This document shows, piece after piece, positions 15,584 through 15,964 of a DNA stretch of 22,969 nt. How positions within the stretch are numbered: the first letter of the stretch is position 1; each line of letters begins with the position of its first letter. The stretch is from a virus (taxonomy: Duplodnaviria; Heunggongvirae; Uroviricota; Caudoviricetes): positions 1-22,969 of the IMG/VR virus record IMGVR_UViG_2548876695_000005; one strand, given 5' to 3'. The notes beneath the pieces were generated by a model. That model was given only the letters and a program-made list of their open reading frames with translations. It was not told the origin of the DNA and did not search any database. The position numbers and the translations under genes were made by a program.

Positions 15584-15625
15584 TCCGTGGGGAGCTGAAC
15601 CAGCAACATGTAACCAGGTGAATCA

Positions 15626-15783
15626 TTTGATACCGACAAGGCTTTTAGTGAAAGGAGGTGAAATCACCTGTAAGATGCTGAAATAAAACAGGTGATGTAT
15701 AGTTCGGACGGAAAACTCTTTTTGATACCGACTGCTCAACAAATAGTCAAAAGATCAAAAAACGGCGACACATTTGATACTGC
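15626..15783 (+). repeat. three direct repeats TTTGATAC(C/T)G, candidate transposase-binding end sites analogous to Mu attL L1-L3
   Basis: TTTGATACCGAC at 15626-15637 and 15721-15732, TTTGATACTGC at 15773-15783. Spacings of 95 and 52 bp resemble Mu L1-L2-L3 spacing. Located between the last P2-like gene and the 3' end of the repressor gene. Confidence 0.45.
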
Positions 15784-15964
15784 TAATTTACCCTTAAAAT
15801 CTTCTTCAAAACATCTTCAAACTGCCAAAATGCTCACATAATCGATCTAACTATAATCAGTATGATAATCATCATGAATTACTATTCAATAGCGTGATTA
15901 TCTTGGGATGAGTCATATGATCTCTATATGTATTTACAGCACCACCTCATGATAGCGATGGCGC

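Follow-up and report, generated by a model that had tools for sequence, protein, structure and literature searches.

Prophage Sp18 of Escherichia coli O157:H7 Sakai has been described as a Mu-like phage which is efficiently packaged and does not circularise (PMC2669165), and the members of its family occupy strain-specific sites, often within other prophages (PMC7430833, PMC10132054). The layout known for the group is three plus three sites, spaced differently on the two sides (PMC3145075). In this work, we have analysed a stretch of 22,969 nucleotides (nt) of viral DNA (Caudoviricetes; IMG/VR record IMGVR_UViG_2548876695_000005, positions 1–22,969; hereafter the window), in which positions 15609–15790 had been pointed out, from the letters alone, as the left end of a Mu-like element with three direct repeats. 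Our analysis argues, with a probability of about 0.88, that this segment is the left prophage end (attL) of an Sp18-type Mu-like prophage inserted in a P2-like prophage, and that the three repeats are L1, L2, and L3, the docking sites of its transposase. The Sp18-type subsites are apparently undescribed in the searchable literature, where a search with the motif gave unrelated primers only.

The element starts at window position 15609 with TGTAACC, and the homology to dozens of independently inserted copies begins exactly there. Matches to the left end were found in ~250 E. coli genome records at unrelated loci, and in the best-matching records the alignment begins at, or a few bases from, query position 210, which is window 15609. 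The six left junctions that we aligned have TGTAACCAGG in common, while the base preceding the terminus varies among the copies (A, G, G, G, C, A and others); 21 more left ends from IMG/VR show the same shared start and variable preceding bases. According to these alignments, the left terminus of the Sp18-type Mu-like prophage lies exactly at 15609, just where the sequence-only reading had put it, and its proposal of a Mu-like left end is supported by the boundary with variable host DNA together with the adjoining repressor, ner, A, and B genes. From 15609 on, the sequence is 96–97% identical to Mu-like elements annotated inside Shiga toxin (Stx) phages (LC727895 and LC727881), and the element is assigned to the family of Sakai prophage Sp18, which is common in E. 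coli and Salmonella. The earlier suggestion of a distinct transposable-phage lineage therefore holds in one respect only: the element is distinct from Mu in its motif and in its transposase, which shows 23% identity to MuA over the full length in a direct comparison, but the lineage is not new, since it is the Sp18 family.

Three direct repeats are indeed present in the left end: TTTGATACCGAC occurs at 15626–15637 and 15721–15732 and TTTGATACTGC at 15773–15783, all on the + strand. Under an order-1 Markov model, ~0.8 copies of the 8-mer TTTGATAC are expected in the window, counting both strands, and three same-strand copies of it within 160 nt are expected ~2e-6 times (analytic estimate under the same model). 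Counted from the terminus, the cores lie at nt 18, 113, and 165 of the element. Their distances of 95 and 52 nt resemble the 105 and 40 nt of Mu, and no CGAAAR core is found within 15609–15790; both the Mu-like spacing and the departure from the MuA consensus had been anticipated. When the sites are put in register, a bipartite form RGGYGA-N4-TTTGATACYG emerges, with AGGTGA as the outer half of L1 and CGGCGA as that of L3 and of R1, the first site of the right end, while L2, R2, and R3 keep the core only, without the outer half. A further CAGGTGA-type copy near the terminus, CAGGTGAA, had been listed along with an inverted repeat. This copy does exist, although at 15615–15622, one base higher than the 15614–15621 given earlier; instead of pairing with the inverted repeat, it fits better as the outer half-site of L1, because the bipartite form emerges in register and the corresponding position holds CGGCGA in L3 and R1.

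Between L3 and the repressor gene, the unit AAAACATCTTC (window 15795–15830) is present in one copy more in some near-identical left ends (L012 and L014, reading …TTCAAAACATCTTCAAAACATCTTCAAACTGCC), which represents a small copy-number polymorphism.

The window ends ~7.4 kb into the element, and the right end was examined in complete sister copies. One of them, L003 (NZ_AP026099.1, from E. coli 61_150228), is a 39,480-bp (base pair) element in rihA, with the first 230 nt of its left end identical to the window, and its right end, read inward, is TATAGCGCGGCGATTTTTTTGATACCGATTTGCATTTCATTTGATACTGCTGAAAAACGCCGATACGCAACTTATTTGATACTAAATCGG. In the whole L003 element, TTTGATAC occurs 8 times against ~1 expected. 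Six of the eight copies are terminal, three on the + strand at nt 18, 113, and 165, and three on the - strand, 18, 40, and 75 nt inward of the right terminus. R1 reads CGGCGA-TTTT-TTTGATACCGA and has its core at nt 18 from the right terminus, in the same register as L1; R3 is oriented like R1 and R2, and the right-end motifs adjoin mom. The same layout at both ends was found in Sakai Sp18, in three other E. coli copies, and in LC727895, and 15 right ends from IMG/VR agree with it, one of which has lost the R2 core. The sequence-only reading had named the search for inverted copies at the other end as its refutation test, and in the complete sisters three such copies are found, with L1 and R1 equidistant from the termini.

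We have also compared five independent insertions (L003, at 504–508 and 39988–39991, and the pairs L001/L002, L012/L013, L014/L015, and L017/L016). All five have a 4-bp target duplication, namely AGAG, AAAG, AAAG, CAAC, and TAAA. In intact genomes, the unoccupied rihA site carries AAAG only once and matches with 100% identity over 120 nt, and the depositors of LC727895 likewise annotated a duplication of 4 bp. A 5-bp duplication was considered and rejected, as it would need an invariant A as the fifth target base in all five insertions. The right terminus is …GCGCTATA-3', i.e., TA, in five E. coli and 15 IMG/VR copies, and some left ends begin with TATAACC.

For the conservation analysis, we have used 13 distinct left-end sequences, which represent eight types, and calculated the mean pairwise identity. 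The first 90 nt of the element show ~95%, the L2 core 88% (its flanks 52–58%), and the L3 site 85%, while the sequence around L2 and L3 shows 50–58%. In all the left-end types the cores stay at nt 18, 113, and 165, and CGGC.A....TTTGATACTG is invariant at L3. Aligning the ends of related prophages, a check that had been recommended, reveals cores which are fixed in diverged left-end types while the flanks drift. In addition, the cores are constant while the adjoining immunity region is swapped.

Across lineages, the motif changes and the layout does not. Kp4866-3 and vB_YpM_5 have TTTGATAC, with L1 at 18, R1 at 18, R2 at 40, and R3 at 72–75; the L007/L008 type of E. coli and Shigella has TTCAAGATAA, with cores at 18, 89, and 141; Kp4852-3 and SuMu have TTTGCAY, with cores at 18–19 and 40–41; and Mu has CGAAA(A/G), in the arrangement given in the last part of this text. 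These lineages share three plus three sites, equal terminal offsets, and a 22-bp spacing between R1 and R2. The L007/L008 transposase is 74% identical to that of the window at the amino acid level, with 89% in the catalytic core and 48% in residues 106–175; a transposase scan of genome contigs found only two loci, both of the L007 type, and this was the source of the TTCAAGATAA variant. The motif tracks the transposase clade within a constant layout, which is what transposase-binding subsites should show. Since the motif changes with the transposase clade, the residues ~106–175 are likely to be the specificity domain of the transposase.

The comparisons of the transposase itself agree with a distant MuA relationship. 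By tblastn, it is 58% identical to the protein of the Klebsiella prophage Kp4866-3, 44% to that of Haemophilus phage SuMu, 41% to that of Kp4852-3, and 29% to those of Pseudomonas D3112-like phages, with MuA not among the matches listed; the transposase of vB_YpM_5 is 77% identical to that of the window. A six-sequence profile built without Mu matches MuA I-alpha (1TNS, 4e-9), the MuA core and barrel (1BCO, 4FCY), and the N-domain of the Mu repressor (1G4D), while phmmer of the transposase against the PDB gives only the cores of retroviral integrases. D309, D375, and E415 are invariant among the compared transposases; D309 and D375 align with MuA D269 and D336, and E415 with the catalytic E of retroviral integrase. 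The full-length AlphaFold model is poor, with a predicted local distance difference test score (pLDDT) of 50 from a shallow alignment of 75–94% identity, and a fold search with it matched 1TNS only. On the other hand, the AlphaFold2 model of residues 100–275 is all-helical with a pLDDT of 82, and after the best match its fold search gives the TnsB chain of the CRISPR-associated transposon (CAST) transpososome (8EA3) and, lower down, the nuclear magnetic resonance structure of I-beta (2EZK). This model agrees with a MuA-like tandem end-binding domain, although the agreement is too weak for proof.

With regard to the N-terminus of the transposase, the RefSeq start lies 16 codons downstream (L003 1982, which the L003 offset places at window 17083). 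From 17035 on, the N-terminus (MWVTAKECVGLP…, window 17035–17082) aligns residue for residue with MuA I-alpha (LWVSPKECANLP…), and the RefSeq start would for this reason truncate the enhancer-binding domain.

Based on the above analyses, a mechanism can be proposed for the ends. The transposase (17035–19125) would dock on L1, L2, and L3 via TTTGATACYG, with RGGYGA-N4 preceding the core in L1 and L3. By means of L1–L3 and the inverted R1–R3, the transposase subunits would pair both ends into a transpososome, which would nick at the terminal TG and TA and join the ends to the target DNA with a 4-bp stagger. Finally, the small terminase, a gp27 homologue, may start headful packaging at the AGGTGA module that is found in the left end only.

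Several points weigh against the assignment of the repeats as L1–L3. The searchable literature yielded no biochemical evidence of the transposase binding these sites. The right end lies outside the window, and the argument from both ends relies on sister copies, although their left end is identical. Two copies of TTTGATAC are internal, at prophage nt 3573 and 20659 of L003. MuA I-beta and I-gamma (2EZK and 2EZH) are matched neither by phmmer nor by the six-sequence profile, and the fold evidence for residues 100–275 is weak, as the best of 350,542 PDB chains is that of the Mu transpososome (4FCY_A) with a probability of 0.94 but an E value of 0.05.

The spacer between L1 and L2 contains another set of motifs. 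The inverted repeat that had been seen at 15663–15670 and 15689–15696 is real and extends to a perfect 9 bp, with ATCACCTGT at 15663–15671, ACAGGTGAT at 15688–15696, and 16 nt between the arms. Such a repeat is expected ~0.05 times in 360 nt, so by itself it is just mildly unusual. However, the first 90 nt of the element contain AGGTGA or its complement four times (15616, 15656, and 15690 direct; 15664 inverted), with a Poisson P of 6e-8, or ~1e-4 after correction for all hexamers. The cluster includes the palindrome AGGTGA-AA-TCACCT at 15656–15669 and CAGGTGAT at 15689, and, unlike the transposase sites, AGGTGA is absent from the last 200 nt of the element. The spacer has no sequence similarity to that of Mu. 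Six other lineages, namely Mu, vB_YpM_5, Kp4866-3, L007, Shewanella MuM16-1, and Pseudoalteromonas HS6, have a spacer with (C)GGGA repeats, and their transposase motifs are of at least three kinds, which indicates that the spacer is a module independent of the transposase specificity. The gp27 small-terminase homologues of these lineages, compared for those other than the L007 type (NZ_CP178302.1), share [LI]SR[SA]G[LI][NS]R[YH]A at one position, where the Sp18-type gp27 has LSPAAISREA (vs LSRSGLNRYA) in an otherwise 57%-identical protein. Sp18 alone combines the AGGTGA spacer with LSPAAISREA, while vB_YpM_5, although its transposase sites resemble those of Sp18, has a spacer of the Mu type and shares 99.5% identity with Mu in gp27.

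In Mu, the packaging (pac) site reportedly maps between L1 and L2, as is said of the work of Groenen and van de Putte in 1985 and of Harel et al. in 1990. Together with this position, the left-end-only cluster and the co-variation with gp27 make the AGGTGA palindrome and inverted repeat a candidate pac site of the Sp18 lineage, a proposal to which we give a little less than even odds. It has its own difficulties, as the spacer/gp27 co-variation amounts to one evolutionary switch. In the inverted repeat, the loop shows no less conservation than the arms, so that nothing singles out the repeat, and the left-end variant L055 simply loses the ninth pair. The main rival holds that the same motifs are accessory half-sites of the transposase, or an architectural bending site in transpososome assembly, rather than a packaging signal. 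The Mu transpososome needs a sharp bend between L1 and L2, with HU acting in that spacer, and the spacer here is located exactly where the bend would be; moreover, AGGTGA is the outer half of L1 as CGGCGA is in L3 and R1, so that one transposase subdomain might recognise it, and the block of nt 1–90 is conserved as a unit with L1. Against this rival, the spacer type goes with gp27 rather than with the transposase (as in vB_YpM_5), the CGGGA spacer is common to lineages with three different transposase motifs, and AGGTGA is missing from the right end although the transposase sites stand at both. There is also no IHF consensus anywhere in the end: WATCARNNNNTTR was not found in 15609–15965, and its single match in the window is at 8412, so the spacer was rejected as an IHF site. 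We therefore regard this rival as unlikely, although it deserves more weight than those below. It is highly improbable that the inverted repeat acts as an RNA hairpin, either to terminate or stabilise a leftward repressor transcript or as a barrier to transcription from host DNA. The minus strand does form a 9-bp stem of -11.5 kcal/mol (z = -3.4 vs shuffles), ~270 nt downstream of the stop codon of the repressor and on its strand; but a 16-nt loop, no T-run on either strand, and a negative terminator scan led us to reject a terminator, and the lack of an Rfam match a structured RNA. The equal conservation of loop and arms without compensatory changes, and the loss of the ninth pair in L055, also disagree with a hairpin.

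The repeats themselves could in principle be operators of the repressor or of Ner, or chance repeats in AT-rich non-coding DNA, and neither idea is at all credible. They do lie within a 356-nt non-coding stretch that adjoins the repressor gene, and the Mu repressor and transposase share a DNA-binding fold, the transposase profile also matching Mu c (1G4D). In this element, on the contrary, the repressor is of the CI/XRE type and unrelated to the N-terminus of the transposase, the region between repressor and ner (16664–16757) contains no TTTGATAC, and the cores are fixed while the immunity region next to them is swapped. The motif also stands at the far right end by mom, inverted and at an equal distance from the terminus. 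As for chance, it is excluded by the expectation given above for three copies within 160 nt.

The target of the insertion is itself a prophage. Window 11718–15583 codes for P2-type head and tail proteins (by Pfam: GPO scaffold, P2 capsid, small terminase, GPL, and GpR), and the Mu-like element sits 25 bp downstream of the gpR gene of this P2-like prophage, judged from a gpR call of 8.5e-19 (Pfam P2_Phage_GpR) and from a match of 92.7% identity between 15500–15608 and Salmonella phage SI7, which ends at 15608. The junction of the P2-like gpR with the Mu-like end (window 15400–15650) was found in 0 of 5,426 complete E. coli genomes, each half being common there; therefore this insertion is either rare or from another host. 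The coordinates of the features are collected in Table 1.

Table 1 Features at and around the left end of the Sp18-type element (window coordinates; functions of sites are proposals)
Feature	Position	Strand	Basis or remark
Target DNA, end of P2-like prophage	15500..15608	+	tail-completion gene gpR (15107-15583) and the following 25 nt
Left terminal dinucleotide 5'-TG of transposable prophage	15609..15610	+	homology with independent insertions begins here
L1, proposed transposase site	15616..15637	+	AGGTGA-ATCA-TTTGATACCGAC; core at nt 18; same register as R1; kept in Kp4866-3 and vB_YpM_5
L1-L2 spacer module, proposed pac (small-terminase) site	15638..15698	+	palindrome and inverted repeat; left end only
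L2, proposed transposase site	15711..15732	+	core TTTGATACCGAC at 15721 = nt 113; core conserved above flanks
L3, proposed transposase site	15763..15783	+	CGGCGA-CACA-TTTGATACTGC; core at nt 165; bipartite like R1
Repressor (c-like), CI/XRE helix-turn-helix type, not Mu c type	15965..16663	-	Pfam HTH_3, 3.7e-12; phrog_3037 transcriptional repressor, 1.9e-54
Ner-like early regulator	16758..17024	+	Pfam HTH_35, 1.7e-20; phrog_769
MuA-family DDE transposase, 696 amino acids	17035..19125	+	Pfam Mu-transpos_C (PF09299), 1.5e-17; HTH_Tnp_Mu_1, 7e-5 (weak); phrog_310, 6e-210
MuB-like AAA+ target-capture protein	19197..20129	+	Pfam Phage-MuB_C, 2.5e-25; AAA_22, 4e-18

Some side observations concern the neighbouring genes. 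An isolated near-copy of the end motif, TTTGATACCT, lies at window 19172–19181 on the - strand, in the 71 nt that separate the transposase gene from the MuB-like gene. In the P2-like prophage, an open reading frame of 930 amino acids at window 5294–8086 (+) lies inside a 3-kb island of low G+C content (5001–8000, 28–34% G+C), flanked by the P2-type gpA replication gene (2317–4929) and by the Ogr/Delta and portal genes, which is the usual hotspot for cargo or defence genes in P2-like prophages. This reading frame matched no Pfam or PADLOC family at E<=1e-3. Just upstream of gpA, at window 1430–2320 (+), the same prophage codes for a D12-class N6-adenine DNA methyltransferase (Pfam MethyltransfD12, 2e-57).

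Overall, the locus, as the attL of a prophage family already known and distant from Mu, is an ordinary case of a well-understood kind, with modestly interesting lineage-specific details, and the general picture of Mu biology is unchanged. The boundary of a transposable prophage common in E. coli and Salmonella is now fixed to the base, and the signature for both ends, comprising TG and TA termini, 16 nt, TTTGATACYG, the 3+3 layout, and the 4-bp duplication, aids the annotation of such elements, which are often mis-bounded. The proposed sites are candidates for mini-Sp18 transposition tools orthogonal to MuA. The swaps of transposase site with residues 106–175 and of spacer with the gp27 helix provide natural pairs for the study of changes in DNA recognition among Mu-like phages. 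We may go further and speculate, although we consider it rather doubtful as a whole, that the Sp18-type phages are a mechanistically distinct branch of the Mu group, with 4-bp joining, acceptance of 5'-TA termini, a bipartite RGGYGA-N4-TTTGATACYG read by a re-specified I-beta-like domain (~106–175), and packaging re-targeted by a new pac element that co-evolved with the recognition helix of gp27.

Compared with Mu, the element is alike in that L1 and R1 are equidistant from the termini, that the left terminus is 5'-TG, that R1 and R2 are 22 bp apart (cores at 22 and 44 in Mu, 18 and 40 here), that L1 stands ~100 nt from the L2–L3 pair (22/127/167 in Mu, 18/113/165 here), and that genes in the order c-ner-A-B adjoin the left end. 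It differs in the core, which is TTTGATACYG instead of …CGAAA(A/G), in the position of the first core (nt 18 instead of 22), in the right terminus (TA instead of CA), and in the duplication (4 bp instead of 5). Furthermore, the third right-end CGAAA core of Mu is inverted, at nt 56, whereas R3 here points the same way as R1 and R2; the transposase, at 23% identity to MuA, has an unrecognisable I-beta/I-gamma sequence; and the L1–L2 spacer is without the CGGGA repeats of Mu.

Yersinia phage vB_YpM_5 (L006, MT374853.1; 4570–4900, 5930–8023, and 16924–19760), which is classified as a Muvirus, is a mosaic in this respect, as its late genes gp25–gp28 are 98–100% identical to those of Mu, while the transposase and the six end sites (TTTGATAC) all belong to the Sp18 type. 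The circular assembly of this phage links the right and left ends via ~90 nt of presumably host DNA.

Among the closer relatives, vB_YpM_5/6, Kp4866-3, and SuMu have MuA-family transposases of 44–77% identity to that of the window and also the 3+3 layout, their first core being at nt 18–19 and the second right-end core at 40–41. Of these, vB_YpM_5 and Kp4866-3 also share the TTTGATAC core, but have a Mu-type CGGGA spacer instead of the AGGTGA palindrome, and SuMu, like Kp4852-3, differs in its TTTGCAY core. Sp18 of Sakai, with its relatives LC727895 and LC727881, belongs to the very family of the window element: identity over nt 1–90 of the left end is 96%, the right ends are alike in form, and the L2 and L3 cores occupy the same positions. 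Compared with Sp18, the window has another immunity and L2–L3 variant, with 61% identity over nt 91–200 apart from the cores, and its copy sits in a P2-like prophage.

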